Shown here one piece after another: positions 463 through 62,171 of a DNA stretch of 64,000 nucleotides. Position 1 is the stretch's first letter, and every line of letters begins with the position of its first letter. The DNA lies in the NCBI GenBank assembly GCA_965261825.1, contig OZ253484.1, forward strand, positions 289,347 to 353,346. The letters are read 5' to 3'. The DNA is from Dehalococcoidia bacterium. Lineage in GTDB: Bacteria; Chloroflexota; Dehalococcoidia; Lucifugimonadales; QGNO01. The notes under the pieces were generated by a model, which did no database searches, had not been told where the DNA came from, and worked only from the letters and a program-made list of their open reading frames with translations. A program made the position numbers and the translations under genes.

Positions 463-2313
463 TCACTTCTCAATGTTGAGTATCGCCAGAAACGCTTCCT
501 GCGGGATTTCCACCTGTCCAATTCTCTTCATCCGCTTCTTGCCCTCGGCCTGCTTCTCTAACAGCTTGCGCTTCCGAGTTACATCGCCGCCGTAGCATTT
601 TGCCAGTACGTTCTTTCTCTGAGCCCTGATAGTCTCTCTGGCGATGATCCTGCTCCCCATGCTTGCCTGTATGGAGACTTCAAACAGTTGGCGTGGTATC
701 AGGTCTTTCAGTCTGGCTATCAGTGCCCTACCCTGCTGCTGTGCTTTGTCCACGTGAACGATTAGCGACAGCGCATCCACCGACTGTCCGTTCACTAGTA
801 TGTCCAGTTTGACCAGGTTGGCCGGCCTGTAATCCGCCGGCGTGTAGTCAAGGGAAGCGTATCCCTGTGACCTGGACTTCAACTGGTCGTAGAAGTCCAT
901 CAATATCTCACCCAGAGGCGCGGTGAATTCCAACTGCACCCTGGAGTCGGAGGATGGCGCCCCGCCATCCGTTCGCGCGCCGTTGTGGCTGGGCCCGCTC
1001 TGCAGGTACTCCATGCGCTGGAAGTCGCCCCGCCGGCTCGTCACCAAATCTATCATCGCTCCTATGAAGCGACTCGGAGTGATGATGGTCAGATTGAGCC
1101 ATGGTTCCAGTATCTCCTCTATCTGCTGGCGCGGCGGCATCTGTGATGGATTCTGGACTCCTATCTCATTGCCATCCGCCAGCACTACTTTGTGGGCCAC
1201 GCTGGGCGCCGTGGTTAGCAAGTCTATCCCGTACTCCCGTTCAAGCCGTTCTTGCACTATATCCATGTGCAGGAGACCCAGGAAGCCGCAGCGGAATCCG
1301 AATCCCAGCGCGACGCTGCTTTCCGCTTGAAAAGTCAAAGCGGCGTCATTGAGCTGCAGCTTCTCCAGAGCCTCCCCCAGCTGCTTGTAGCTTTCACCGT
1401 CGGAGGGATACAGGCCAGCGAAGACCATTGGCTTCAATGGCTGATAGCCGGTGAGGGCTTCTTCCGCCTGCTTGGCCTGCAGGGTTATTGTGTCGCCAAC
1501 GGGCACCTGTCTGACGTTCTTCAGACCGGTGGCTATATACCCCACTTCACCAGTTGCCAGTCCAGGCAGCTTGGTTAAGGTGGGTCGAAACGTTCCCACC
1601 TCCAACACCTCCGCTTCGTATCCTGCCCCCATGAGCTTGAAGCGGTTCCGCTCTTTCAGCGAACCGTCAAAGACTCTTACGTAGGCCACCACGCCTTTGT
1701 ACTGGTCGTACGCCGAATCGAAAACCAGTGCCCTCAGCGGTTCATGAGTTCCCCCCGTTGGGGCCGGCACCTGCTCCACTACTGCATTCAGCACGCTGTC
1801 TATGCCCAGCCCCTCTTTAGCCGATATGAATAGCATTTCGTCTCTCTTGAAGCCAAAGGTATGCTCTAGCTCCTGGGCTACCACATCCGGCTGGGCCACC
1901 GGCAAATCGACCTTGTTGATCACGGGTATTAGGGTGAGGTTGCGTTCCAGGGCAATGTAGACGTTGGCTATGGTCTGGGCCTGCACGCCCTGGCTGGCGT
2001 CGACCACCAGGAGAGCGCCTTCACAGGCGCGCAGGCTGCGTGACACCTCATAGCTGAAGTCCACGTGTCCCGGGGTGTCTATCAGGTTCAGTTGGTACTC
2101 ATTGCCGTCGCTGTGCCGGTACATGAGGCGCACCGCTTGTGCTTTGATTGTGATCCCGCGTTCCCGTTCCAAGTCCATCTGATCAAGGAACTGGTCCATC
2201 ATCTCACGGTCTGAGACGGTGCGTGTAATCTCCAGCAGCCGGTCCGCCAAGGTAGACTTGCCGTGGTCAATGTGTGCGATTATGCAGAAATTGCGGATGA
2301 AACCCGGTTCCAT
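463..2313 (-). CDS. lepA: Translation elongation factor 4 (LepA)
   Basis: 616 aa. N-terminal GTPase motifs [31 protein letters not shown] and NKVDL. LepA-specific C-terminal region ending ...[26 protein letters not shown]. Confidence 0.97.
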
Positions 2314-2350
2314 GTTGAATTCATGCTAGCATGCGGCATCTTGTGCCACA

Positions 2351-2394
2351 AGCAAAGAGAGGCCCTCAGACTAATCTGAGGGCCTCTCTTTGCT
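2351..2394. terminator. Long perfect hairpin (20-bp stem, 4-nt loop) between the opp-type ATPase operon end and the lepA start
   Basis: agcaaagagaggccctcaga-ctaa-tctgagggcctctctttgct read directly. It lies 16 nt downstream of the stop at 2410 on the minus strand. Only a weak U-tract follows. Confidence 0.55.
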
Positions 2395-2409
2395 TAACGG
2401 TTTGGGGGC

Positions 2410-3429
2410 CTACACCCTGATGCAGGATACCCAGTGCTCGTTGCCCACGTTCCTTAGCTCCGGCACCACCTGGGAGCACTCGTCTATGGCTATGGGACAG
2501 CGGGTATGGAATACACATCCTGGCGGCGGCCTCAGCGGGCTTGGTACGTCGCCGGTCAGAATGATGCGCTCACGCTGAGACTCGATCACCGGGTCAGGTA
2601 TGGGCACTGCCGAAAGCAACGCCTTGGTGTAAGGATGGAGCGGGTTCTCGTAGAGCTCCGTCCTATCTGCAAGTTCCATGATCTTGCCCAGATACATTAC
2701 TGCTATACGGTCGCTGATGTGACGCACCACCGAAAGGTCATGGGCTATGAATAGGTACGTGAGGTTAAACTGTTCCTGCAGGTCCTCCAGCAGGTTGATT
2801 ACCTGGGCCTGGATGGATACGTCTAGCGCAGATACCGGCTCATCACACACTATCAGGCTGGGACGTACCGCCAGCGCCCTGGCCACGCCTATCCGCTGGC
2901 GCTGGCCTCCGCTGAATTCGTGAGGGAATCGGTTAGACATGCTGGGATTTAGGCCGACCACCGATAGGAGTTCCGCTACTTGTTCCCTGTATTCACCTCT
3001 GCTGTTTGTCATCTTGTGGACAATCAGCGGTTCGCCAATGATGCTCCCCGCGTTCTGGCGCGGATCCAGTGAGCTGTACGGATCCTGGAATATCATCTGC
3101 ATTCGCCGGCGGAACCGTCGCAGCTGGCTGCCCTTTAGGGTGGTGAGGTCATGTCCTTCGAACAGCACCTGGCCGCTTGTTGGCTTGTACAGTTGCAAGA
3201 TACAGCGTCCCGTAGTTGTCTTGCCGCAGCCGCTCTCACCCACCAGGCCCAGCGTCTCACCTCTGCGGATATCAAAGGACACGCCATCCACGGCTTTGAT
3301 ATCCGCTACCTTCTTCTGGAAGATGATCCCTGACCGTACTGGGAAGTACATCTGCAGGTCTTGTACTGAAACGAGTACGTCGTCTTGTGATGTGGTCTGG
3401 GTTTGCGTTCGCTCTTTCTGCTCTACCAT
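2410..3429 (-). CDS. Oligopeptide/dipeptide ABC transporter ATP-binding protein (OppF/DppF type)
   Basis: 339 aa. Walker [10 protein letters not shown], signature [15 protein letters not shown], Walker [13 protein letters not shown]. The C-terminal oligopeptide-type extension has a Cys pair ([11 protein letters not shown]). Confidence 0.9.
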
Positions 3430-4443: not shown

Positions 4444-4500
4444 GACTTCTCCTCACTCACGGTTAATATAGTTGAAACCAGCCTAGAACTTCGAACCAAG

Positions 4501-4582
4501 TGGGGAAGAGGAGACTCGAACTCCTACGCCTTTCGGCACATGATCCTAAATCATGCTCGTCTGCCAATTCCGACACTTCCCC
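4501..4582 (-). tRNA. tRNA-Leu (anticodon UAG)
   Basis: Minus strand reads GGGGAAG-TG-TCGG..CGAG-C-ATGA(T)-TTTAGGA-TCATG-long variable arm TGCCGAAAGGCGT-AGGAG-TTCGAGT-CTCCT-CTTCCCC-A. Cloverleaf folded by eye. It is a class II tRNA, and CCA is not encoded. Confidence 0.9.
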
Positions 4583-4620
4583 ATTGTCTGATTAATACAG
4601 TCATCAGATTGGCTAGACTG

Positions 4621-4693
<73 letters not shown>

Positions 4694-6694: not shown

Positions 6695-7654
6695 CTATGC
6701 CTGCACCGTGAGCCGTCTCAGATCCTCCGTCTTAGACTCCAGGTGGTCACCCAGGCCAATCCGGCCGGATACTCGTGTCCCAGCCATCCTCAGCCCAATG
6801 ACGGCTGGGATGGCGACGCCGGTGGGCCCCAGAAGCGTGCCGATGGCGTCGTAGACCGTGGCCCTGCCTATTCGATTCGCTCCCGTCCGCAGTGACTCCC
6901 GGAAGGTGGAGCGTCCCATCAAAAGGTTTCTTCCCTCCATGACTCCGGTCATGGCGACGGCCACGAAGGGGATGGAGTCGAGGGCCGCTTCGGCGCCCTT
7001 GTCTAGCAGGTCTTCGGCCATACCCTCGCTGTGCTCGTCAAGCTGTGCTTTCGTCACGCTCTCCAGTTGTTGATTGGAGATGCCGGTGCCGAGGATTTCA
7101 TCGGCCGTGTCATCGATCTCCGAGGTCGTAGCGACCCGGATATCGGGGTATTTTTCCAGGGCTTCCTTGACGTAGCCGAGAGAATCGGTAGCTTTGGCCT
7201 GAATCTCCTCGGCTACGGACCCGTCTTCGTTCGCTATCACCAAGTCCCATCCCGGCTGCGTCGACGACTCAGCGAGCTTGGCAACCTGCCCGGGCTCCAA
7301 CTCGATCTCGTCAAGACGCTCTCCAGCGTTGAGACGGTCGCGCGCCAGGACTTCGAAGTACTTGCCTTTAACCCCGTTGGCCAGACCGCTGAGCCGCTCT
7401 TCAGATGAGCCTTGAAGGGACTCCAGGCTGACGTTGGGGTACTGAAGCCGGAAGGCCTGCAGAAACTGTGGGTCGGCGTTTGGCTCAAGCCCCAGGTTGG
7501 TGATCCTGTCAAGCGATACGTCGACGGCTAATGCGGCTATGTCCAGGACCTGCCGCTCGCCTCGACTCCTGTACTCCTGGGCTAACTCGTGGAGAGTTTC
7601 CCGATTCTGGGGCGGATATGACTCTGCGAGCGCTACAAGCTGTTCGTATCCCAT
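6695..7654 (-). CDS. Hypothetical protein with a PD-(D/E)xK-like motif arrangement and a C-terminal Gly-rich hydrophobic region
   Basis: 319-aa ORF with good coding appearance. The central segment KGKYFEVLARDRL...PGWDLVIANEDGSVAEEIQAKAT has the E...D...(E/Q)xK spacing of restriction-endonuclease-fold proteins. The C-terminus has two hydrophobic Gly/Ala-rich stretches (IPFVAVAMTGVMEG, LLGPTGVAIPAVIGLRMAG). I recognise no family. Confidence 0.55.
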   Translation of the reverse strand: MGYEQLVALAESYPPQNRETLHELAQEYRSRGERQVLDIAALAVDVSLDRITNLGLEPNADPQFLQAFRLQYPNVSLESLQGSSEERLSGLANGVKGKYFEVLARDRLNAGERLDEIELEPGQVAKLAESSTQPGWDLVIANEDGSVAEEIQAKATDSLGYVKEALEKYPDIRVATTSEIDDTADEILGTGISNQQLESVTKAQLDEHSEGMAEDLLDKGAEAALDSIPFVAVAMTGVMEGRNLLMGRSTFRESLRTGANRIGRATVYDAIGTLLGPTGVAIPAVIGLRMAGTRVSGRIGLGDHLESKTEDLRRLTVQA

Positions 7655-11951: not shown

Positions 11952-13238
11952 ATGAGCACGCCCACGGTTTACATAGAGACGCACGGCTGCAAGCTGAACG
12001 AGGCGGATACCCAGGCCATGTCGCGGCGTTTTCTGGAAGCGGGCTACGGCATAAGCAGCAAGCCGGACGACGCCTCGATCCACGTAGTCAACACCTGCAC
12101 GGTGACACATGTCGCCGACAGCAAGGCGCGCCAGGCCCTGCGCAGGGCGAAGCGTCGTAACCCTGGATCGCTGGTTGTCGCCACGGGCTGCTATGCACAG
12201 CGCGCCCCGGATGAGCTCGATCGACTGGAAGGGGTAGACGTTGTTCTCGGTAATACCCAAAAAGACGCCCTGGTGGAGGAAGTCAGTCAACTCCTCAGCT
12301 TCTACGGATCGGACAGTCCCGGCCTAGACACTATAGATGAGGAACGAGCGCCCGTCCTGCTCTCCCGCGCCATGATTAAGATCCAAGAGGGGTGCAACCA
12401 GGTATGCGCCTACTGCATTGTGCCCAAGGTGCGTGGTCGGGAACGCAGCATTCCGCCGCAGACCCTGGTGTCGCAGGTCAACGACCTTGTGAGGCGGGGC
12501 TACCGGGAAGTGGTGCTCACCGGCACGCAATTGGGTTCCTATGGTTTCGATATACCGGGCGCCTCGCTGACTGGGATGCTGCGCCGCCTGCTGGATGAGA
12601 CCACGATACCCAGGCTCAGGGTATCCTCATTGCAGCCTCAGGAAATCACGGATGAGCTGCTGGATCTGTGGCAGGACCAGCGGCTCTGCCCCCACTTCCA
12701 CTTACCCCTGCAGAGCGGTTCGGAGCCTGTGCTGAAGCAAATGCGTCGCCGCTATTCGCCCGTGCGCTACCTGGAAGCGGTTCGGATGGTGAGGAAAGCC
12801 GTTCCCGATGCTGCCTTGACCGCCGACGTCATAGCCGGCTTCCCTGGCGAGACGGTGGAGCAGTTCCAGGACACCTACGACTTGTGCAGCGAGGTGGGTT
12901 TCGCCGCCATCCATGTGTTTCCCTATTCCGCCCGGCCTGGTACCACCGCCGCTTATCTCAAGCCCAAAGTAGACTCTAAGGAGGTGCGGCGGCGCATGGA
13001 GATGATGCTTGACCTGGCGAATCGTCAGGCGGAGTCCTACAGAAAAAGCCTTCTGGGCACCAGGAGCACGGTACTCTGGGAGAACGGCAAGTCCTTGGGG
13101 AATACCCGAGTATGGTCAGGCCTTACTGGTAATTACGTACGGGTTGCCGCGGCTTCCAGTGAACCCCTTCACAACAGGATTACCCCTGTTGTTCTGGAGC
13201 AATTGAACGGCAGGACAGTCTGGGCCAGGCTTGCCTGA
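11952..13238 (+). CDS. mtaB: MiaB-like radical-SAM methylthiotransferase (MtaB type)
   Basis: 428 aa. N-terminal UPF0004 cysteines (THGCKLNE, NTCTVT, TGCYAQ), radical SAM motif CNQVCAYCIVP, C-terminal TRAM-like region. Confidence 0.85.
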   Translation: MSTPTVYIETHGCKLNEADTQAMSRRFLEAGYGISSKPDDASIHVVNTCTVTHVADSKARQALRRAKRRNPGSLVVATGCYAQRAPDELDRLEGVDVVLGNTQKDALVEEVSQLLSFYGSDSPGLDTIDEERAPVLLSRAMIKIQEGCNQVCAYCIVPKVRGRERSIPPQTLVSQVNDLVRRGYREVVLTGTQLGSYGFDIPGASLTGMLRRLLDETTIPRLRVSSLQPQEITDELLDLWQDQRLCPHFHLPLQSGSEPVLKQMRRRYSPVRYLEAVRMVRKAVPDAALTADVIAGFPGETVEQFQDTYDLCSEVGFAAIHVFPYSARPGTTAAYLKPKVDSKEVRRRMEMMLDLANRQAESYRKSLLGTRSTVLWENGKSLGNTRVWSGLTGNYVRVAAASSEPLHNRITPVVLEQLNGRTVWARLA

Positions 13239-52852: not shown

Positions 52853-52989
52853 GTCACCACTCCTAACTTATCACACTCTTGCTCCATCCGGTCGGGGCCG
52901 GTCCCGCCGGATGGCTCATCGGAGCCGCAGGCCGCGAGCGTCATCAGCAGAGCCAGCGCGATAGCGGTGAGCAGTAGTTCTCTATGCAT
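52849..52989 (-). CDS. Small putative lipoprotein (46 aa), translationally coupled to the propeller-peptidase gene
   Basis: Translated by hand (below the ORF-track size cutoff): MHRELLLTAIALALLMTLAACGSDEPSGGTGPDRMEQECDKLGVVT. Lipobox LAAC. Its TGA overlaps the downstream ATG (ATGA). Confidence 0.45.
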   Translation of the reverse strand: MHRELLLTAIALALLMTLAACGSDEPSGGTGPDRMEQECDKLGVVT

Positions 52990-53186
52990 GTTGCAATATC
53001 ATCACGTTCAAGTCTAGCCAAACATGGGATTCACCAGCCTATTATAGGACTGAAGGGCATGTTTCACAATGCTCTGCCGATATAACGTATCTGTTCTAGC
53101 CGCAGACCAGTATCCCTGTCCTTTGCTCTCCCTGGAATGGCCGGGTAGGAGCAGCGGCCGATCACAGTACCAGAGCGAAGGAAATG

Positions 53187-53218
53187 GTAAAGGTTCTTGA
53201 TTTTATCAAGTCTGGTGG
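53187..53218. repeat. 32-bp repeat core, copy A (contains hairpin CTTGAT-TTT-ATCAAG at 53196..53210)
   Basis: gtaaaggttcttgattttatcaagtctggtgg. By direct comparison, 29 of 32 positions are identical to 59747..59778 and 24 of 32 to 63148..63179, all in the same orientation. Confidence 0.85.
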
Positions 53219-53296
53219 ACGGGGGAGAATCGAACCGCCATCGTGGGCCACTCGTGCACTTTAGCTATGAGGCCCTAGCTGACCGACCCCGACTCC
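53213..53296 (-). repeat. tRNA-3'-end-like 84-nt unit, copy A (not a foldable tRNA)
   Basis: The minus strand ends ...GGCGG-TTCGATT-CTCCC-CCGTCCA-CCA (T-loop, acceptor-like, CCA). The 5' end GGAGTCGGGG can pair with CCCCGTCC if 2 nt bulge. The middle did not fold into D or anticodon arms by eye. Confidence 0.6.
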
Positions 53297-53300
53297 GACA

Positions 53301-53309
53301 GGGGGGGGG
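53301..53309 (+). repeat. G9 homopolymer at the inner edge of repeat unit A
   Basis: Nine consecutive G read directly (acagggggggggtcag). Confidence 0.95.
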
Positions 53310-53645
53310 TCAGACTGAGGGCCGGGCGGCTGGGGCCGCCGACCCCCGCTGACCCGAGAGAAAGAAAATCAGCCTCCCGGACGGCCCGGTGTGGGGGTGT
53401 GCGCCGGGCCGTCGGCCCTCGATGGGGAGAGAGGATGCCCCGCAGACAGGGGCCAGGGGCTGGCCCGGGCCACGGCGGCGATCAGGTGGGGTTCCTCCTC
53501 ACTGTGACAACGACACGAGCGGCAGGGGGCGAAACGCGTCCCTGCTCGCAGACGCCTGTGACCTCGTGGCGGGCTGATAATTGAGATGCGGCGAAAGCTG
53601 AACTACGTTTCAACTGGCCCCAGTGGTCCCGTGGGAGTCCCCCGA

Positions 53646-53963
53646 CTATCGAACGGCGTTCACTTCGAGCTGGACACCCTCGTGCTGCTGAATCCGGCTG
53701 ATGACGTCGAACAGGTTGCGGGCGTGGGGATTGCCGTCCGGTCCGAACATACGCATCAGACTCTTGGGCTGCTTGTTTGTGAGGGAGCCGAGCTCCTCGA
53801 ACCCGATGGTGGCGTTGATGTAGTCGCACAGCACGATCTTGCCTGCATCGACGTCCCCTGCCAGCAGGCACTCGACGCCTTCCTTCAGCAACCCTTCTCG
53901 AAATGCCGGGTCGCGCTCGGCTCGGGCCTGCACGGTCTCCCTGAAATCACGGGTGAGCGGCAT
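53646..53963 (-). CDS. HigA-type addiction-module antidote protein (HTH antitoxin)
   Basis: 105 aa. MPLTRDFRETVQARAERDPAFREGLLKEG...GFEELGSLTNKQPKSLMRMFGPDGNPHARNLFDVI matches the 'putative addiction module antidote protein' family as I recall it. Confidence 0.85.
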   Translation of the reverse strand: MPLTRDFRETVQARAERDPAFREGLLKEGVECLLAGDVDAGKIVLCDYINATIGFEELGSLTNKQPKSLMRMFGPDGNPHARNLFDVISRIQQHEGVQLEVNAVR

Positions 53964-53966
53964 GTT

Positions 53967-54297
53967 TCACACCTCCTGTTGCTTGCGACGCTTGTACTCC
54001 TGCCAAAGATCGCGGGCATCCTCGATGTCCCTCTGCTGGCGTTCCTTGGTCCCACCGCCGAGCAGGACTATCAACGTGTCTCCGTCCCTGCCGAAAATAG
54101 ACTCTGTAGCCCGGGCCGATGTGTATACGGCGCTCCAGCACGCCGCTCCCGACGCCTCTGACGTTGGACAGGTTCCCCGACTCCATGCGGGCTAGGATCG
54201 TCCTTACCCTGGTCGCTGCCCCGGCGTCGAGACCGTCGAACCAACGACCGAATGGACTGCTGCCTCGCTCGTCGATGTATTCTCTGATCTCGATCAT
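53967..54297 (-). pseudogene. HigB/RelE-type addiction-module killer protein, frameshifted
   Basis: The N-terminal part [68 protein letters not shown] is family-typical. The family-typical C-terminus [41 protein letters not shown]-stop continues in another frame, after an extra base in the A/T run at 54094..54097. Confidence 0.8.
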
Positions 54298-54530
54298 GGC
54301 AAAACGGTAACAGAAGCGTTACTATGATTTCAAGCCTAGTAGCGTGGGGTTCATTTGGTTACCTTTGTCGGAAAGAACATCCGACATTCTGTTGTATGCG
54401 AACGAGGTGCCTCATGTGCAAGACTCAGAGAAACCATGAAGCCGTCGCGAGCACTCCGAGGCCATTCATCTACCGCGTCGAGAAGACAGGCCATCTCAAG
54501 TCGGTAGCCATCCCATAAGCAGGCCATGCC

Positions 54531-54822
54531 ATGACTAACACCCTGTACTACGGCGACAACCTGGAAATCCTGCGGCAGCACGTCGGCGACGAGTCGGTCG
54601 ACCTGGTGTACCTGGACCCGCCCTTCAACTCGAACGCCAATTACAACGTGCTGTTCAAGGAGCGGTCGGGCGAGGAGTCGCCCGCCCAGATCAAGGCGTT
54701 CACCGACACGTGGGAATGGACCCAGGAGTCGGAGAGGACGTTCGAGCAGGAGATCGTCCTGAACCCAAGCAGTTGGTGGCCGTTGTCGGGTGTCAACTTC
54801 TCACCCTGGGGTAAGAGGTCGA
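54531..54822 (+). pseudogene. N6/N4 DNA methyltransferase (PF01555-like), N-terminal fragment only
   Basis: MTNTLYYGDNLEILRQHVGDESVDLVYLDPPFNSNANYNVLFKERSGEESPAQIKAFTDTWEWT carries the DPPF motif IV. The SAM-binding C-terminal half is missing. The reading frame runs into repeat unit B and stops at 54875. Confidence 0.8.
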
Positions 54823-54907
54823 GGTGGACGGGGCTGGAATCGAACCGCCATCGTGGTGCCACTCGTGCACTTTAGCTAGGAGCCCACTCGTGACCGACCC
54901 CGACTCC
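54823..54907 (-). repeat. tRNA-3'-end-like unit, copy B (diverged, no CCA)
   Basis: Aligns with copy A over its full length with small indels and substitutions (roughly 85-90% identical by eye). Similarity stops at the same boundaries in both copies (..ggtggacgggg on the left, ..ccgactccgaca on the right). Confidence 0.6.
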
Positions 54908-55025
54908 GACACGGCTGTGCGCACGTATCGCCTGGCGACAGCTGCTCTCCGAATAGTAGTGTGAAGGGCGGTTGTTCGGCGGAGTCAAGTCAGGCAGTGC
55001 GACCCGAGAAGGAAGGAAGGCCATT

Positions 55026-56117
55026 GTGAGTGTGGTGACAGCAGTGGCGGCCCTTGCCGCCATCGGCTTGCTTTTCGCGATGGACCCAGGCGGGGCAATC
55101 GCTGAAAGCGGCTTTCCCGACTTCCGGGAGATGGACTGGAAGCAGCTGGCGGTCTGGGGCTTCCGCACGATAGGCGTAGTCGTAGCGCAGCTGCTCATCA
55201 TCGTGCTGTGGTTGTGGCCCAAGCACCGGCCCCCGCAGGCGCTTGAGGAGCATCGACGCCCGTGGGACGCGGGGGCCCCACAGCCCGGTTCAATGCCCGC
55301 GGCGGCGGTATCTACGCTGGAAGGCCACATGATATGGAGCCCGACGCTGCTGGCCTCCATCATCGAGATGTGCCAGCGCGGCACGCTGCGAATCGAGGCC
55401 GTCGGAACAAGGGTCGGCTTCCTGTACCGGCTGTCTCGGCAGGCTCCCGTACAGTATGACTGGGAGCGAACGATATGCGAAAGCATGCCCATGCCGTCGC
55501 GCGCCACAACGGTTGATGCGCTCCATGAAGCGATAATGAAGCGCGAGGATGCCATCGGCGACCAGATAGGGAACTACCTGCAGCATCGCGGCCTTTTCCA
55601 TGACAATCCGGTGCGAGTCAGGAGGGAAAACGACGACGATGCAATCGGATGGGGAATGCTGGCCGGCGCCTTGATGGGCGTTGGCAGCGGGCTTTGGGCG
55701 GCTCTATGGCTGGACCAGTGGTGGGCGAACGCCCTGATCGGCGCGTTCACATGTCTCGTATATTTGCTGATGGCGCCGTCGATACGAACCGGCATGGTGC
55801 CGACAACGCAGAGGGGAGCGCATGAGATAAGTCAGTGGCTAGGCTGGAAAGAGACTCTGGCCGGATCTGCCCCGCCCTATGCCCGGAACCAAGCTGATTC
55901 CATGTTGCCCTATGCCGTGGCGCTGAATGTGGCCCAGCCATGGCTCGATGTCGCAGGCTCGGCTCCGCCGTGGTTCGGATCCGGCAGCGCATCCTCCCTG
56001 CAGGGCGCCGACCTGGACGCGGCCTATCACGGTTTCATGCACGCGCCGGAGTGGTACCTGAGCGGAAGGTCGGGCGATGCGGCGAAAGCGGCCGAGGGGG
56101 GGGTCGTCATGAACTAG
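55026..56117 (+). CDS. DUF2207-like membrane protein
   Basis: GTG 55026 follows GGAAGGAAGG. Signal/TM VSVVTAVAALAAIGLLFA and further TMs. PGSMPAAAVSTLEG...ASIIEMCQRGTLRIE and SMLPYAVALNVAQPW resemble the C-terminal half of DUF2207 proteins. Confidence 0.65.
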   Translation: MSVVTAVAALAAIGLLFAMDPGGAIAESGFPDFREMDWKQLAVWGFRTIGVVVAQLLIIVLWLWPKHRPPQALEEHRRPWDAGAPQPGSMPAAAVSTLEGHMIWSPTLLASIIEMCQRGTLRIEAVGTRVGFLYRLSRQAPVQYDWERTICESMPMPSRATTVDALHEAIMKREDAIGDQIGNYLQHRGLFHDNPVRVRRENDDDAIGWGMLAGALMGVGSGLWAALWLDQWWANALIGAFTCLVYLLMAPSIRTGMVPTTQRGAHEISQWLGWKETLAGSAPPYARNQADSMLPYAVALNVAQPWLDVAGSAPPWFGSGSASSLQGADLDAAYHGFMHAPEWYLSGRSGDAAKAAEGGVVMN

Positions 56118-56134
56118 AGCTCAAGCTACTCGAA

Positions 56135-56752
56135 TTGGAGTCGCCGGATACCGGGAAGGCCGTGCACAGGGAGACCGACGACGAAATCCAGGACATAGCC
56201 CGTGAGCCGGATTCACAGCGCAGTTCTCGGGAAAGTGCGCCGCCACCGCCATCGGGCGGGTATCAACAGTACAGGGGAGAAAGACTGATTGAGGAACCGA
56301 AGAGCGGCGGGGGCCTCTGCGGGTGCTTCATATGGGTGGTAAGCCTGGTAGGCATAGGGGTGGTGGTCTTGGTCGTCCTGTTCAGCCTCGATGTGGTCTC
56401 GCCTCGCGACAAACCGTGTCCCTTGGACTCTCCCGCGATCCCGACGCCCGCGCAGATTGCGGTGGTCGGCGACCTGTTCCGCGATGAGTGCATGAGGGTC
56501 AGTGGCACGGTCGTGTTCCAGGACGCCGACGAGCTGGTGGTGGAGATGAAACGGGGCGAGTACGTGCAGCGGGTTAACGTACGCGACCCGTCGGAGGTTC
56601 TCGAAGCAATCCCCCTAGGCCGCGTGGTGACCCTGGCTGGGCGGCTCAAGGAGGAGGACGACGGAACATACGCAGTCTACTTCGTACCGGACTATAGATC
56701 GGACCGGGGGTGGTGGCGGAACCTCCGGGACAACCTTGAAGGGTTGTTCTAG
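56135..56752 (+). CDS. Hypothetical single-pass membrane protein with a small beta-rich C-terminal domain
   Basis: TM CGCFIWVVSLVGIGVVVLVVLFSL, then VSGTVVFQDADELVVEMKRGEYVQRVNV...VTLAGRLKEEDDGTYAVYFV. No ATG is available. TTG 56135 or GTG 56162 are the candidate starts. Confidence 0.4.
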   Translation: MESPDTGKAVHRETDDEIQDIAREPDSQRSSRESAPPPPSGGYQQYRGERLIEEPKSGGGLCGCFIWVVSLVGIGVVVLVVLFSLDVVSPRDKPCPLDSPAIPTPAQIAVVGDLFRDECMRVSGTVVFQDADELVVEMKRGEYVQRVNVRDPSEVLEAIPLGRVVTLAGRLKEEDDGTYAVYFVPDYRSDRGWWRNLRDNLEGLF

Positions 56753-56796
56753 GTGGCTGTGGGTGCGGCAGGCATTGGTGATGGCTTGGTGGCAGG

Positions 56797-57096
56797 CTAG
56801 GAAGGCACGTTACTGCAGACTTCGTCGCGGCTCGCCTTAAGGTCTTCGATCGGAGCGACGGAACTCACATAGATGAACTGCGCCTTGGCCTCGTCCATAT
56901 CTTTGGCGGTGGGGAACGTCATGAGCATGCTTGCCTCGAAGACTTCAGTGTTCCCCTGGGCCCAGCAGTCCCAGGTCTGATTGAGGATGTCCTCCTTGCT
57001 CTCGCCGCCTCCGCAGGCGGCCAAGAGTAGGATGGACGCCAAGATACACATAAGTGGAATGGCGATAAACAGAAAGGGTTGGGAGTTGATTCTCAA
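56797..57096 (-). CDS. Small hypothetical lipoprotein
   Basis: 99 aa with signal and lipobox ILLLAACGGG. Confidence 0.5.
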   Translation of the reverse strand: MRINSQPFLFIAIPLMCILASILLLAACGGGESKEDILNQTWDCWAQGNTEVFEASMLMTFPTAKDMDEAKAQFIYVSSVAPIEDLKASRDEVCSNVPS

Positions 57097-57301
57097 TGTT
57101 CGTTCCTAATAGTAGTTGGCCTGCCGCCGGAAGGTCCTGCCACAGGCTCCGGCCTGCGCCCATCTATGTCACGGAAGGATGTGGAGGGAGCCGGAAGCGG
57201 CTGTGGGGCTAGGCCGGGGGGACGCGCGAGCATAGCGAGCGCGGTGGAGGCCGACCACCCCCAACATACACCCGACACGCCGAGACACCGCTCGCGTCCG
57301 A

Positions 57302-57907
57302 CTAAAGCCACTGCTTCTGGCCGGTAACGTAGATACTCTGGAAGTCTTCATCCGACTTGGTCAGGTAGATAATGCCTTCCACCAACCCGAGTACGCCAGC
57401 CGCCATCAGAAAAGCATAGCCAACCACGTACATCAATAACCCAATGACGGCGCCAATGCCGAACATCCCCAAAGCTATGAATGCACTGCCCACAATCACA
57501 GCCAGCACTATGCCGCCGCCGCCAACTGCCAGCTGTATTATTGCGGGCTTCTTGAAGCCCAGGTAGAACTTGTGGACGCCGGCCCAGCCAAGGAATATCC
57601 CCAGCAGCCCGGCAACCACCTTGGTCTTCTCGGAGCCCATCACGCCCTCGAGAGCGCCGCCAATCCCGCCGGTGCCGGGGGCCGGCGTAGCACGGTAAAT
57701 GGCTACAGCATCGCTGCCCTGCGCCTCGAAATCCACCCGCATTCCCCGGTTGGGATTGGCCTGGTCTTTCCATTCGGTCCCGACAAAATTATATCGGTTG
57801 CCGTCATCCCCTGTGATCAGTCCCGAGTTGGTTTGAGCGGAGTAATCTAATACTCGTCCATTCATTCCCTGTTCTCCTCTCCCTGCTGCGCTGCTGGGAT
57901 CTGACAA
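57302..57907 (-). CDS. TM2-domain membrane protein
   Basis: 201 aa. KVVAGLLGIFLGWAGVHKFYLGFKKPAIIQL is the TM2 (PF05154-like) motif. The soluble N-terminal domain carries GLITGDDGNRYNFVGTEW. Confidence 0.72.
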   Translation of the reverse strand: MSDPSSAAGRGEQGMNGRVLDYSAQTNSGLITGDDGNRYNFVGTEWKDQANPNRGMRVDFEAQGSDAVAIYRATPAPGTGGIGGALEGVMGSEKTKVVAGLLGIFLGWAGVHKFYLGFKKPAIIQLAVGGGGIVLAVIVGSAFIALGMFGIGAVIGLLMYVVGYAFLMAAGVLGLVEGIIYLTKSDEDFQSIYVTGQKQWL

Positions 57908-57972
57908 GTAGTCAAAGGAGGATCGTCAACGACCTGTGCGCGCCCGGCGGGTCGGCGGAGCAGCTGCTGGAG

Positions 57973-59655
57973 GTGCTGACCTTCCGGCGGGCCGACGGGC
58001 GGGAGGTCTCCCTGGAGGAGTTCCCCCTGTCCCAGGGACTGAGCACGGGGGAGACGGTGCGGGCCGAGGAGATCGTCCTCCAGGCCCCCGACGGGCGGAG
58101 CGTCACCACCCTGATCAACGCCACGTCCATCCGCTCCGAGGAGGGCGAGGTCGAGTCGGTGGTCGTGACCATGCAGGACATGACGCCGATGGAGGAGTTG
58201 GAGCGGCTGCGGGCCGAGTTCCTGGGCATGGTGAGCCACGAGCTGAGGACGCCGCTGGCCGCCATCAAGGGCTCAGCCGCCACGCTGACGGAGGCGGCCT
58301 CCGACCTAGACCCCGCCGAGATGCTCCAGTTCTTTCGCATCATCGGCGAGCAGGCCGACTACATGCGCGACCTGATCGGCGACCTGCTCGACGTGGCGCG
58401 CATCGAGACGGGCGAGCTGTCGGTGGCCCCCGCGCCTGCGGACATGGCGACCCTGGTGGACGAGGCCAGGAGCAGGTTCCAGAGCGGAGGGGGCAGGAGC
58501 AACCTCCGCATCGACCTGCCCCCGGAGCTGCCGCTGGTCATGGCGGACGGGCGCCGCATCATCCAGGTGCTGAACAACCTCCTCACCAACGCGGCCGGGC
58601 ACTCCCACGAGGCGTCCGCCATCGGGGTGTCCGCCGTGCGGGAGGGCTACCACGTGGCGGTCTCGGTCACGGACGAGGGCAGAGGGATAGCCGCCGAGCG
58701 GCTGCCGCACCTGTTTCGGAAGTTCTCCCGCATCGACGGCGAGGACCGGAGACGGGACATCGCGGGGTCGGGCCTGGGCCTCGCCATCTGCAAGGGGATA
58801 GTGGAGGCCCACGGGGGCCGGATATGGGCCGAGAGCGACGGGCCGGGCCTGGGGGCGCGGTTCACCTTCACCATTCCGGTGGCCCAGGGCGCCGCTATCG
58901 GGCCCACCCATCTCCCGGTGCGCTCTAGGCGGACGGAGAGAGAACGGGAGCGCATCCTCGCGGTGGACGACGACCCGCAGACGCTGCGGTACGTCCGGGA
59001 CGCGCTCGCCAGGGCGGGCTACGCGCCGATCGTGACCGGCGACCCGCAGGAGGCGACGAGCCTCGTCCGGGCGAACGACCCCCACCTGGTGCTGCTGGAC
59101 CTGATGCTGCCGGGGACCGACGGCATCGAGCTGATGGGGGATATCCTCGATATGGCGGACGTGCCGGTCATCTTCCTGTCGGCCTACGGCCAGGAGGAGA
59201 ACATCGCCAGGGCTTTCGAGAATGGAGCCGACGACTACGTGGTCAAGCCCTTCTCGCCGACGGAGCTTGTGGCGAGGATCAAGGCGGCCCTGCGCAAGCG
59301 GGAAGCGCCCGAATGGGCCGAGCCGTCGGAACCCTACGTGTTTGGAGAGCTGACCATCGACTACGCCGAGCGCCGCGTGACGCTGGCCGGGCGTCCCGTG
59401 CAGCTGACCGCCATCGAGTACGGGCTGCTCTTCGAGCTATCGGCCAACGCCGGCCGCGTGATGACCTACGACCGGCTGCTGCAACGGGTCTGGGGCCTGC
59501 GGGGCTCCGGGGACTCGCGGCGGGTGCGCACCGCCGCGAAGCAGCTCCGCCGCAAGCTGGGCGACGACGCCAACAACCCCACCTACATCCTCAACGAACC
59601 CCGCGTCGGCTACCGGATGCCGAGGGGAGAGACGCCGGGAGCGGAGGAATCGTGA
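57973..59655 (+). CDS. Fused sensor kinase / OmpR-type response regulator (PAS fragment-HisKA-HATPase-REC-winged helix), probably 5'-truncated
   Basis: H-box FLGMVSHELRTPLAAI; HATPase NLLTNAAGHS, DEGRGI, GSGLGLAICK. REC ILAVDDDP, LVLLDLMLPGTDG, DYVVKPF. wHTH LTAIEYGLLFEL...PRVGYRM. The frame stays open upstream to about 57841 without a start, and PAS-like sequence begins abruptly near 57915, where GC content jumps. Confidence 0.8.
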   Translation: MLTFRRADGREVSLEEFPLSQGLSTGETVRAEEIVLQAPDGRSVTTLINATSIRSEEGEVESVVVTMQDMTPMEELERLRAEFLGMVSHELRTPLAAIKGSAATLTEAASDLDPAEMLQFFRIIGEQADYMRDLIGDLLDVARIETGELSVAPAPADMATLVDEARSRFQSGGGRSNLRIDLPPELPLVMADGRRIIQVLNNLLTNAAGHSHEASAIGVSAVREGYHVAVSVTDEGRGIAAERLPHLFRKFSRIDGEDRRRDIAGSGLGLAICKGIVEAHGGRIWAESDGPGLGARFTFTIPVAQGAAIGPTHLPVRSRRTERERERILAVDDDPQTLRYVRDALARAGYAPIVTGDPQEATSLVRANDPHLVLLDLMLPGTDGIELMGDILDMADVPVIFLSAYGQEENIARAFENGADDYVVKPFSPTELVARIKAALRKREAPEWAEPSEPYVFGELTIDYAERRVTLAGRPVQLTAIEYGLLFELSANAGRVMTYDRLLQRVWGLRGSGDSRRVRTAAKQLRRKLGDDANNPTYILNEPRVGYRMPRGETPGAEES

Positions 59656-59746
59656 GTGGCCGAGCCTGTCCTCTCCGTTCGTGGCAAGTCCTCGCCCGGC
59701 GGGTAGGGGTGAGGCCCCTAACTACACCGCCAGCTTGAACCTCAAC

Positions 59747-59778
59747 GTAAAGGTTCTTGATTTTATCCAGTTGGGTGG
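59747..59778. repeat. 32-bp repeat core, copy C
   Basis: gtaaaggttcttgattttatccagttgggtgg. It abuts the point where replication-relaxation-like sequence ends (59780). Confidence 0.85.
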
Positions 59779-59779
59779 G

Positions 59780-61266
59780 CCAGTAGTAGCCCGTATAAGT
59801 GCTCAGGCGGGCGATGACTCCCCTGGGGTGGCGGGCGCGAAGCTCGTACTCAAGATAGAACGGCACGTGAAGGCCGCCGGCGACCAGGTGACCTACGGCG
59901 TCGGGTGCGATGGCGGACTCTCCCCAGTTGTAGGCCCGGTCGGACCTGGCGGTGGGGACCGTCCACTGGAGTTCGCTCGACGAAGCTTCCCTAGTCTCAG
60001 CCTCAAGCGCCGACAGGAACCACGTGATGCCGTCTGCGTGCTTCGTCTGCCGCGCCCACGTGTCGATGCGGTGGCCGACGTGCCGCCTGCGGCCCTGGCG
60101 GTCGGTGGTGAGGGCTGTGCTCCAGATGCCTCGCGTGGTGGGGAGCTGGGCGCGGTCCCTGTGGGTGACGTAGCGAATGCCCTCGGCGGACAACGCGAAG
60201 CGGGTGTCGCCTCGTTGTCCTCGTCGCTCGACAAGGCTCCAGGTATCGACCAGGGTGCGCATCATCTGGCTTACGCGCCCCTCGGAGACGCCGAGCCAGC
60301 GGGCAAGGTGCTCACGGGGGATCATCAGGTGGTCGGTCACGAGGTCGAGCGTCCGCTTCTCCGAGGGGCTGATGCCGAAGGCCGGCGCAGCCTGCACCAG
60401 CCGCTCGGGACGGGGCAGCGAAGCCCGCTTCCGTTCCGGCGACGCGGTGCGAAGCCCTCCTCCGGGGCTGCCGTGGGCGCTCACGTCCTTCAGCGTGTGG
60501 TACGAGCTGCCGAACACCCACGAGGGTTCACACCAGAGGCGAAGGTCCCGTCTTTCGAGCCCGTCCCTGGTTTCCACGGCGACGAAGCAGTCATCGAGGT
60601 TCAAGTTTATGCAGAACCTCGTCGTCAGCCTCTCCTCCCAGACGCTCGGCGTCAGGACCAGGGTGGCATCTGGGCGTCGGGTGTAGTCGTACCCCGCGAT
60701 TGCTCTCAGCCGGTCGTAGAGAGACCGGCGCCGTAGGGCCAGACCCTGGCGCACCACGCCGAAGCTGCGGCCGTCGTGGAGGGTGATGGTGGCGTCGAAG
60801 CGGCCCCTGCGGTGGAACTCCACGTGTGAACGAAGGAATCGGATGCCGGGGGACAGTGAGGCGGCGAGACGGTAGACGGCGGCCACAGCGTCCATCCGGC
60901 GGATGAGCAGCGCCAGCCACTCCCTGGACACAGGGTAGGCGCGTACGAAGTCCGAGGGCGTGTCGAAGCCGAGCATCCCGGCGGCCTGTCTGATGCCCTG
61001 GGCTGTCAGGTAGTATCGCTGGCTCGACGGAGGTGGGCGGTTCCGTGGCCCTCCCTCCCCGCGTTGCCGTGGCCCTCCCTCCCCGCGTTGCCGTGGGCCA
61101 ACGCCAACAGGCCGGTCAAAGCGCGGTGGACTGTCGCGTGCGGCTCCCCAAGGATGCCCGCCAGCTCCGCCGAATCAACGAATGGCATACGGCTGAGGGA
61201 ATCGAGTAGCCGTTGGTCGGAAGGAGCCACGTGTCGAGCGTAGCAAAAGAGGGGCGCGCTGTGCAT
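59780..61266 (-). pseudogene. Replication-relaxation family protein (mobile-element type), frameshifted and 3'-truncated
   Basis: Track ORFs 61006..61266 and 59591..60976 join into one family-like sequence (...HGTAHL / PSSQRYYLTAQGIRQAAGMLGFDTPSDFVRAYPVSREWL...) only if one base is restored near 61029..61033. Family-like sequence stops after ...RLSTYTGYYW at the 32-bp core. There is also an in-frame 24-bp duplication. Confidence 0.7.
61043..61090. repeat. Perfect 24-bp tandem duplication inside the replication-relaxation pseudogene
   Basis: ccgtggccctccctccccgcgttg occurs twice back to back (61043..61066 and 61067..61090). It encodes the duplicated HGNAGREG. Confidence 0.95.
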
Positions 61267-61811
61267 CCGTCACAGGGCAGTGCCGGTGTGTGGGAAGGCA
61301 GCGGACGCCGCCGAGTTCATGGCCGAGGAGCCGGTGAAGCCGAAGGGCCGGGGCCGCAAGCCTCAGCCCGCAGCCACGTCCCTGTTCGAGTGGGAGCTCG
61401 CCCTTGAGCAGGATCGGGAGCGGGAGGCGGAGCCGGTCGGCGCGGGGCGCTAGGCCCCCCTGCACGTCCATCTGTGCGGCCCTTTTCTGTTGCCCATTTT
61501 CCCGTGGGGCATTGATGCCTCTTCTTCGCCCTCTTCTGCGTCAGATGGTCCATCTGGGGAAGCGGCAGGCATGGAAGCCAATAAGAGGAGACTCACTCTG
61601 GACCTGGCCTCCACCCTTCAACGTTGGCTGAAGGTCTGGCGGTCAAGGGCGTCAGCATGCTCCGGAGCGGTCAAGCCGCCGTCGACCGGGAGGCCGCCGA
61701 AGGGAGAGGCTGATACCCCGATTCTCGGCAGCGCCATGCGCCATAGCCAACACGCGCTGGGAGCGCCTCCAGGACGATATGCTGTCCATCCCCGGCTGAG
61801 GGCGCGTGGCT

Positions 61812-62171
61812 TTAGCAGAAGGGCAGGCCGCCAAGGTCAGAGGAGGTCGACTGGTCTTCCAGGCTGCTTGGCACGCACCCGCTTAAGTCGTTGCCGCTGA
61901 GGTCCAGCCATACCAGGTTGGAGAGGCTGCCCAGCTCCGCCGGTATCTCCCCGCTCTGCTCCTGTATCTGCTCAATGAGAGACGCGACGGTGGCCTCATC
62001 CACGAGGGCGGGTGCGCCCGCGGGCCCTGGAGATCCGGCTGGTCCGGGTGCGCCTGAGGAGCCCTGCGGCCCGGGAGGCCCCTGCCCCCCAGCGGGCCCG
62101 GCAGCTCCCTGGCAGGCAGCAATTGACAGGATAAGAGCGATGATCGGGATTACTGTGATTAGGGCGCGCAT
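61812..62171 (-). CDS. Small lipoprotein with collagen-like G-x-y repeats and one plant-type LRR unit
   Basis: 119 aa. Lipobox LSIAAC, then GAAGPAGGQGPPGPQGSSGAPGPAGSPGPAGAP, then IPAELGSLSNLVWLDLSGNDLSGCVPSSL. Confidence 0.65.
   Translation of the reverse strand: MRALITVIPIIALILSIAACQGAAGPAGGQGPPGPQGSSGAPGPAGSPGPAGAPALVDEATVASLIEQIQEQSGEIPAELGSLSNLVWLDLSGNDLSGCVPSSLEDQSTSSDLGGLPFC

Follow-up and report, generated by a model that had tools for sequence, protein, structure and literature searches.

Actinomycete integrative and conjugative elements (AICEs) such as pSAM2 and SLP1 combine a Replic_Relax-type protein (PF13814) with a site-specific recombinase and integrate at tRNA 3' ends; they mostly use tyrosine integrases, have one tRNA target and carry FtsK-like transfer genes. 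Tandem islands containing partial tRNA or ssrA repeats and integrase-less remnants have also been described (PMC3146451; bioRxiv 10.1101/2020.12.28.424599). The accretion model for cis-mobilizable elements (CIMEs; in PMC3146451) holds that integrase-less, att-bounded segments persist beside active relatives and can move with them. Here, we analyzed a 64,000-nt window from a Dehalococcoidia bacterium (contig OZ253484.1, positions 289,347-353,346, assembly GCA_965261825.1), in which two tRNA-end-like repeat units, A and B, bracket a small toxin-antitoxin and methyltransferase islet. With a probability of roughly 0.65, these units represent att arms or scars of stacked integrative elements that insert at tRNA 3' ends. 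All coordinates refer to the window unless preceded by the number of a related locus (L001 and so on).

Units A and B are direct repeats on the minus strand with ~87% identity. MAFFT aligned 53213-53300 end to end with 54821-54911 (minus strand), the differences being one 1-nt indel (GGC-CC versus GGCACC), one indel in the 3' strand of the T-stem and one 12-nt diverged patch. A repeat search matched 53247-53303 to 54858-54914 at 86% and 53227-53246 to 54837-54856 at 100%; in addition, a 19-mer taken from the unit has two occurrences in the window, where 0.03 would be expected, and a window search showed GGTTCGATTC to be confined to the two units. The repeat is confirmed as real and chance is excluded. 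An initial inspection of the sequence, referred to here as the original prediction, had the similarity start and stop at the same nucleotides in both copies; the end-to-end repeat stands, with a 5' extent ~4-7 nt longer (TGTC...) than first given.

Resemblance to a tRNA is confined to the final ~33 nt of the unit, which comprise a T-loop, the 3' strand of an acceptor with U at position 70 (U70) and, in copy A, the CCA; the original prediction had likewise read T-loop, acceptor strand and CCA at the end of copy A. Unit A ends in ...GGCGGTTCGATTCTCCCCCGTCCACCA, followed by CTTGAT-AAA-ATCAAG, and unit B in ...CCACCTCG / ...GTCCACCTCG, with the CCA missing as first described. The T-stem, initially considered degraded in copy B, is imperfect in copy A as well, and the T-loop and the GTCCACC(A) end are kept without T-stem pairing. 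Unit B is of the same variant type as unit 1 of L007. Among five unit variants compared, three blocks are invariant, the spacing between T-loop and CCACC differs by 1-3 nt and the flanks differ directly after CCACC; in type-2 units, CACGAGTGG(G)C is present twice. The complete chromosome OZ253485.1 contains the unit pattern at these two places only, and a genome-collection scan detected the unit in two Dehalococcoidia metagenome-assembled genomes (MAGs) only, never as part of an intact gene. Scanning metagenomes for the T-arm block CCACGATGGCGGTTCGATTC returned 0 matches, and no unit variants were present downstream of HigA homologues in 26 loci. In the CBDCXW01 MAG, units are found close to where their 8-kb loci begin (0.3-1.3 kb), possibly because contigs end there. 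The two L007 units are separated by IS110-family and IS21-family (IstA/IstB) insertion sequences (L007 2700-6460).

Evidence for a role in integration came from the sequence that follows unit A. This conserved element end, termed P', consists of GACTTGAYRAAATCAAGAAC and ~40 nt, with a palindrome of the form CTTGAy-rAA-ATCAAG; the stretch past the palindrome is kept too (..TTCAAGCTGGCGGTGTAGT). In the original prediction, the palindrome had been recorded as a hairpin outside copy A, a description superseded by its recurrence, as part of P', in other contigs after real tRNA genes. Such loci were collected through Replic_Relax homologues and a metagenome scan for CCAGACTTGAYRAAATCAAGAAC, and the tRNAs were confirmed by ARAGORN. 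P' directly follows the CCA (...CCACCA) of seven genuine tRNA genes representing five tRNA species (Table 1); in other loci, AGGCCCACCA and further conserved 'right-end' sequences precede it. A scan of a viral collection with P' yielded 0 matches.

The junction between unit and P' occurs with three different downstream elements: one in the window and L001-L005, one in L006 and one at unit 2 of L007. When unit A is compared with loci carrying a tRNA and P', BLAST similarity begins ~20-24 nt before the CCA, at the T-loop/T-stem, and the unit appears to occupy the place held by the tRNA gene in those loci. As is characteristic of att repeats, the repeat covers a tRNA-like 3' end and ends at or near CCA, and the P' junction sequence recurs at true tRNA genes. 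Copy A, whose 3' end was originally proposed as a boundary, does end in a genuine junction, with P' directly after the CCA. The second P' copy of the window, at junction J1, is 91% identical to the first (repeat search, match 59747-59778) and interrupts a Replic_Relax gene, with a junction of TACTGG|CCCACC in place of the TACTGGTCCAAC or TACTGGTCCACT of intact genes. The Replic_Relax sequence at this cut is a look-alike of a tRNA-Ala 3' end.

Table 1 Features of the window and tRNA genes followed by P' in related loci.
Feature	Position	Strand	Remarks
Unit A	53213..53303	-	Candidate tRNA-3'-end-like att arm or scar; TGG on the plus strand at 53213-53215 corresponds to CCA
Unit B	54823..54914	-	Type-2 unit variant; lacks CCA and a following P'; abuts truncated methyltransferase gene
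P' copy 1	53150..53212	-	Starts directly after CCA of unit A; palindrome GACTTGATAAAATCAAGAAC at 53193-53212
P' copy 2 (junction J1)	59715..59783	-	Core GGCCCACC at 59774-59781; CAACTGGATAAAATCAAGAAC at 59753-59773; then 3' end of HisKA-response-regulator gene
tRNA-Val	L015 298-374		P' directly after CCA
tRNA-Ile	L012 3076-3152		P' directly after CCA
tRNA-Ala(GGC)	L019, L026		P' directly after CCA
tRNA-Ala(TGC)	L022, L025		P' directly after CCA
tRNA-Glu	L023		P' directly after CCA
Multi-copy composite block	52887..61956	.	Holds both units; 99.6% identical to L001 over full length
Lipoprotein gene start	52887..52989	-	34 codons (signal peptide); gene after P' in L001-L005
GC-rich noncoding arm upstream of unit A	53304..53645	-	~340 nt, ~73-74% GC, between HigA and unit A
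HigA-like antitoxin gene	53646..53963	-	Intact, 105 aa; no Pfam or NCBIfam match
HigB/RelE-family toxin gene	53947..54297	-	Frameshifted by one extra T
N6/N4 DNA methyltransferase 5' fragment	54531..54774	+	~79-81 codons; homology to relatives stops ~49 nt before unit B
Replic_Relax pseudogene	59778..61266	-	~82% DNA identity to intact L001 gene; cut at J1 ~97 codons before normal stop

P' also connects the junctions to a candidate enzyme. Its antisense strand encodes ...VKVLDF(I/V)KSGG, the C-terminus of large serine recombinases (LSRs) in related elements. In L003, L010, L011 and L015, LSR reading frames end in ...SESASVLDFVKS(S/G)PP and then run into T-loop-like DNA; in reverse complement, the codons at this end correspond to the P' palindrome. 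LSRs with Resolvase, Recombinase and Zn_ribbon domains are present in related loci, and the four reading frames are located at +12198 in L010, +12205 in L011 and +12149 in L015 (three whole genes) and at +18399 in L003 (C-terminal fragment only). L015 contains an element of ~12 kb between tRNA-Val and an NHL-repeat gene (298-400; 12140-12210), with the 8-nt sequence GCCCACCA at both junctions and inverted 20-nt arms just inside. Judging from these sequence features, the LSR may be the enzyme that acts at P'. No recombinase gene was found in the window, LSRs being present in related loci only; between units A and B lie only the HigA gene, the frameshifted HigB gene, the methyltransferase stub and noncoding DNA. 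Action at these sites would therefore be historical or occur in trans. L008 additionally features an inverted tmRNA-like 3' fragment (600-705, plus strand; ..GGGCGGTTCGATTCCTCCCACCTCCACC), with a downstream flank in common with the unit, and a frameshifted P4-type tyrosine integrase gene 1.5 kb away (1856-3137, minus strand).

The Replic_Relax protein (L001 12430-14142) produced 1692 matches at E<=1e-10, with >120 distinct clusters at 82-95% identity and several per MAG chromosome; the element family is unusually prolific. In L015, a Replic_Relax gene contains a perfect 135-nt tandem duplication (7111-7380).

Both units belong to a composite block of at least 9 kb that recurs, with 99.2-99.9% identity, in at least five other Dehalococcoidia contigs, one of the records being the MAG chromosome OZ253485.1. 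Positions 52887-57914 are 99.7-99.9% identical in L001 and L003-L005, and 99.7% identical in L002 outside a 138-nt gap (57062-57199). At least five other contigs encode an identical HigA protein; three of them measure 3.33 Mb, 3.23 Mb and, in circular form, 367 kb. The neighbor order is constant: kinase-regulator, TM2, DUF2207, 114-aa methyltransferase stub, HigB, HigA, lipoprotein and Replic_Relax. At 52887, after 34 codons of the lipoprotein gene, the window ceases to match any of the other copies. Since the multi-copy homology runs to this position, copy A does not form a border with unrelated sequence, and the original description of ordinary chromosome to its left does not hold. The GC content of 58000-62000 is 66-71%, as compared to ~58% in the rest of the window, consistent with the kinase/Replic_Relax part of the block being foreign. 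Two further observations concern this part. A public-record gene on the plus strand (59656-60735; 359 aa; L001 3229-4308), antisense to the Replic_Relax pseudogene, is probably a spurious call in high-GC DNA. Lipoprotein genes preceding Replic_Relax contain 72-nt tandem repeats encoding a collagen-like (GPxG) stretch (61878-61956 and L001 11468-12008), with copy numbers that differ between loci.

On this basis, we propose that the window contains members of a family of Dehalococcoidia integrative elements that carry a Replic_Relax protein and, where complete, an LSR. Their insertion point would be the very 3' end of tRNA genes, each junction consisting of a tRNA or a unit and then P'. The unit would serve, or would have served, as a tRNA-like half-site, be it an attP arm, an element-borne target or a captured decayed tRNA end, and the remainder of the unit together with the GC-rich stretch would represent a conserved arm that moves with the elements. 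Read along the minus strand, the proposed stack begins with the truncated Replic_Relax gene, P' at J1 and the sensor-kinase/TM2/DUF2207 cargo. It would continue with unit B and the remnant islet (methyltransferase 5' stub, HigB, HigA and GC-rich arm), followed by unit A, its P' and the beginning of a further element that breaks off at 52887. All of this would later have spread as one block.

The islet itself shows signs of decay. GC content rises to 0.74 at 53300-53449, as the original prediction had noted for the sequence to the right of copy A. Parts of this GC-rich arm accompany the unit elsewhere (as far as 53479 in L008 and 53373 in L007), with up to ~180 nt conserved in L006-L008. Database homologues of the HigA-like protein are named 'transcriptional regulator' only, and HigBA pairs of this type occur in many unrelated contexts. 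Because of its frameshift, the window HigB scores below the TIGR02683 cut-off (55.4 versus 62.85 bits). The frameshift reported in the original prediction was located to one extra T in a T-run but is limited to the window copy: L001-L005 encode an intact HigB of 109 aa, and the extra T is missing in L006 too. None of six other copies has this T (T-run, 54040-54100), which may stem from a homopolymer error in long reads and not from decay. For the methyltransferase N-terminus, the best 120 relatives are all 75-157 aa long and cut at many different points; the gene seems to be very widely degraded or frameshift-split in these metagenomes. L006 lacks 54580-54940, including unit B, with CAGC microhomology at the deletion. 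We considered and rejected L006 as an empty site for copy B, as the microhomology deletion is derived and does not represent precise excision. Overall, the islet is best read as a decayed remnant between two scars and not as a clean attL/attR insertion.

Different explanations for the units were weighed against this proposal. The original prediction had allowed for a duplicated gene for a small structured RNA. In its present form, this alternative, which we consider very improbable, would have the unit, perhaps with the GC-rich 5' extension, act as a functional tRNA- or tmRNA-like noncoding RNA carried by the element, with copy B as a partial duplicate. It could explain the three blocks that are invariant across five variants, the CCA end and the ability of GGA..CGGGG to pair with CCCCG.TCC, where variants differ by C-to-U (G-U) only; a possible long-range helix, GCCGCUCGUG / CACGAGUGGC, can moreover be read by eye in copy A. 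ARAGORN and Rfam, proposed as checks in the original prediction, detected only tRNA-Leu and tRNA-Lys genes in the window (4500-4693) and none at the units, and Rfam searched at E<=10 over 52900-55300 gave no match to tRNA (RF00005) or tmRNA (RF00023). The sole Rfam match of the trimmed unit, to beta_tmRNA over T-loop and CCA end, is not significant (5.6 bits, E=3.3). ARAGORN called unit A as 'tRNA-Thr' and unit B as 'tRNA-Ala' at 80% thresholds only, with mismatched and mutually inconsistent folds. Fold energies are no better than those of shuffles (z-scores -0.65 to +0.11). The central T-stem pair is non-standard in five of five variants, no pair has changed on both sides across them and slid controls pair equally well; these pairing results apply to the T-arm and the inner acceptor pairs, the outer three acceptor pairs having been entered one column off. 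On reading the sequence, neither a tag-like reading frame nor a GGGCGGG/GGACGGG 5' strand was seen, and L007 and L008 have no counterpart of the upstream strand of the putative long-range helix. Neither the window nor nine related loci contain an intact tRNA or tmRNA next to a unit, no tmRNA is present in the window or in L001-L015, with no ssrA nearby, and the genome scan for a parent gene revealed no intact tRNA or tmRNA candidate. The units are best explained as recombination sites in DNA and not as genes for RNA; a T-loop and end kept without T-stem pairing would be expected if proteins read the unit as DNA. Among more specific RNA models, a tmRNA with the GC-rich region for its body and the unit for its 3' end had initial appeal through U70, the resemblance of CTAAAGTGCACGAG to tmRNA helix 2 and the same possible GCCGCUCGUG/CACGAGUGGC helix (length ~335 nt). 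It was rejected for want of Rfam or ARAGORN support, a tag frame and, in L007 and L008, the upstream partner. Permuted (two-piece) tmRNA, tRNA-Sec and class II tRNA folds did not fit on reading and had no detector support.

The remaining alternatives also involve integration. The original prediction had interpreted the units as recombination scars in a tRNA-like target, forming an attL/attR-type pair; the association with a recombination site and the tRNA-like 3' ends were borne out, the pairing as two ends of one insertion was not. Taken classically, the islet would be one small element that entered a host gene for tRNA or tmRNA at its 3' end, the units being the duplicated target, a scenario that is improbable and already largely refuted. 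The direct orientation and the tRNA-like 3' end with U at acceptor position 70 speak for it, as do the tandem ssrA-end repeats known in Dehalococcoides (PMC3146451) and the presence, near the L008 unit, of a different tmRNA-like 3' fragment and the P4-type integrase. It is contradicted by the lack of an intact tRNA or tmRNA at either unit, in the window and in the nine related loci, by the lack of an integrase between them and by the fact that both units and both flanks move as a single block, near-unchanged in multiple genomes. In addition, the copy lying downstream is A, which with its upstream arm is the more complete of the two, opposite to classical expectation, and the restriction of the unit pattern to these two places on OZ253485.1 again argues against this scenario. 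Comparison with relatives lacking the insert, likewise proposed at the outset, identified no precise empty site, L006 alone being without copy B through its microhomology deletion. Quite improbable, too, is an origin of the unit as a pile-up of successive att-core scars without present function, in which repeated integration and deletion would have left three modules ending GG(N)CC(N)CA(C). The internal ATAGCT..GTGCACGAGTGGCCCACGA resembles ..ATAGTT..GTGCACACAGGCCCACCA, a 'right-end' type found ahead of P' in L013, L016 and L017, and the double occurrence of CACGAGTGG(G)C in type-2 units would fit as well. These are, however, short similarities judged by eye, and the three invariant blocks among otherwise diverged copies are left unexplained.

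Stacked elements with tRNA-end-like att arms or scars, thus preferred, face difficulties of their own. The window contains no recombinase gene. Unit B has no P' after it, it appears to meet the methyltransferase stub at a deletion, and it is homology to unit A only that suggests an att role for it. The parent of the unit could have been a decayed tRNA-Ala-like or tmRNA-like 3' end and not a dedicated site. With tyrosine recombinases present near some sites (L008, L026 and the edge of L015), the LSR is only a candidate for the enzyme acting at P'. Any assignment of junction sides to host or element would be tentative, and the variable spacing of 1-3 nt between T-loop and CCACC is awkward for a strict protein-binding site. 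Any order of integration events is conjectural, as is any crossover nucleotide: deletions have scarred the junctions at unit B and 52887, and for most elements the loci do not extend far enough to include both ends. A bolder extension, which we regard as doubtful, is that the unit is a portable mimic of a tRNA 3' end, a landing pad for LSRs that read a generic T-loop...CCACCA end common to many tRNA species, such that new elements could stack on residents and not on host tRNA genes. The family, in which the recombinase gene terminates within its own att site, would then be a hugely expanded, undescribed mobile system of Dehalococcoidia. If true, such a mimic would explain how islands grow by stacking without risk to host tRNA genes and could point to serine integrases with broad, predictable targets.

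Among described systems, tycheposons (Hackl et al., 10.1101/2020.12.28.424599) share with the locus integration at tRNA or tmRNA 3' ends, tandem stacking, partial-tRNA repeats, degenerated remnants without integrases and the combination of replication-type genes with cargo. A minority of them use large serine recombinases, in likeness to the LSRs identified here. Tycheposons differ in that their integrases are specific for one tRNA and are mostly tyrosine recombinases, whereas P' follows five tRNA species, the enzyme is apparently an LSR with C-terminal codons overlapping the site and the window repeat matches no identifiable tRNA. The ssrA islands of Dehalococcoides (McMurdie et al. 2011, PMC3146451) come from the same class and likewise form tandem islands with direct repeats of an RNA-gene 3' end. 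They use a serine-recombinase integrase (DsiB, CcrB-like), islands without an integration module have been read as cis-mobilizable remnants and a pseudo-tRNA lies within the module. These islands are, however, located downstream of a single ssrA, with a 20-bp repeat and insertion in the T-loop, in contrast to our locus with no ssrA nearby, a repeat of 85-90 nt, a junction at or after CCA and a block that is multi-copy within and between genomes.

The CIME model would fit the HigBA islet and the kinase cargo segment, with the difference that the outer junction of unit B is a deletion scar and not a clean att site. With AICEs, the elements share Replic_Relax (PF13814), a site-specific recombinase and tRNA 3' ends; the AICE-typical tyrosine integrase, single tRNA target and FtsK features were not seen here. 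Partial-tRNA scars in stacked islands are known and ordinary, and the element family is apparently undescribed. Less ordinary are the coincidence of the last recombinase codons with the site and the very prolific nature of the family, and the presence of P' after the CCA of five tRNA species implies an integrase that reads generic tRNA-end features and not one gene.

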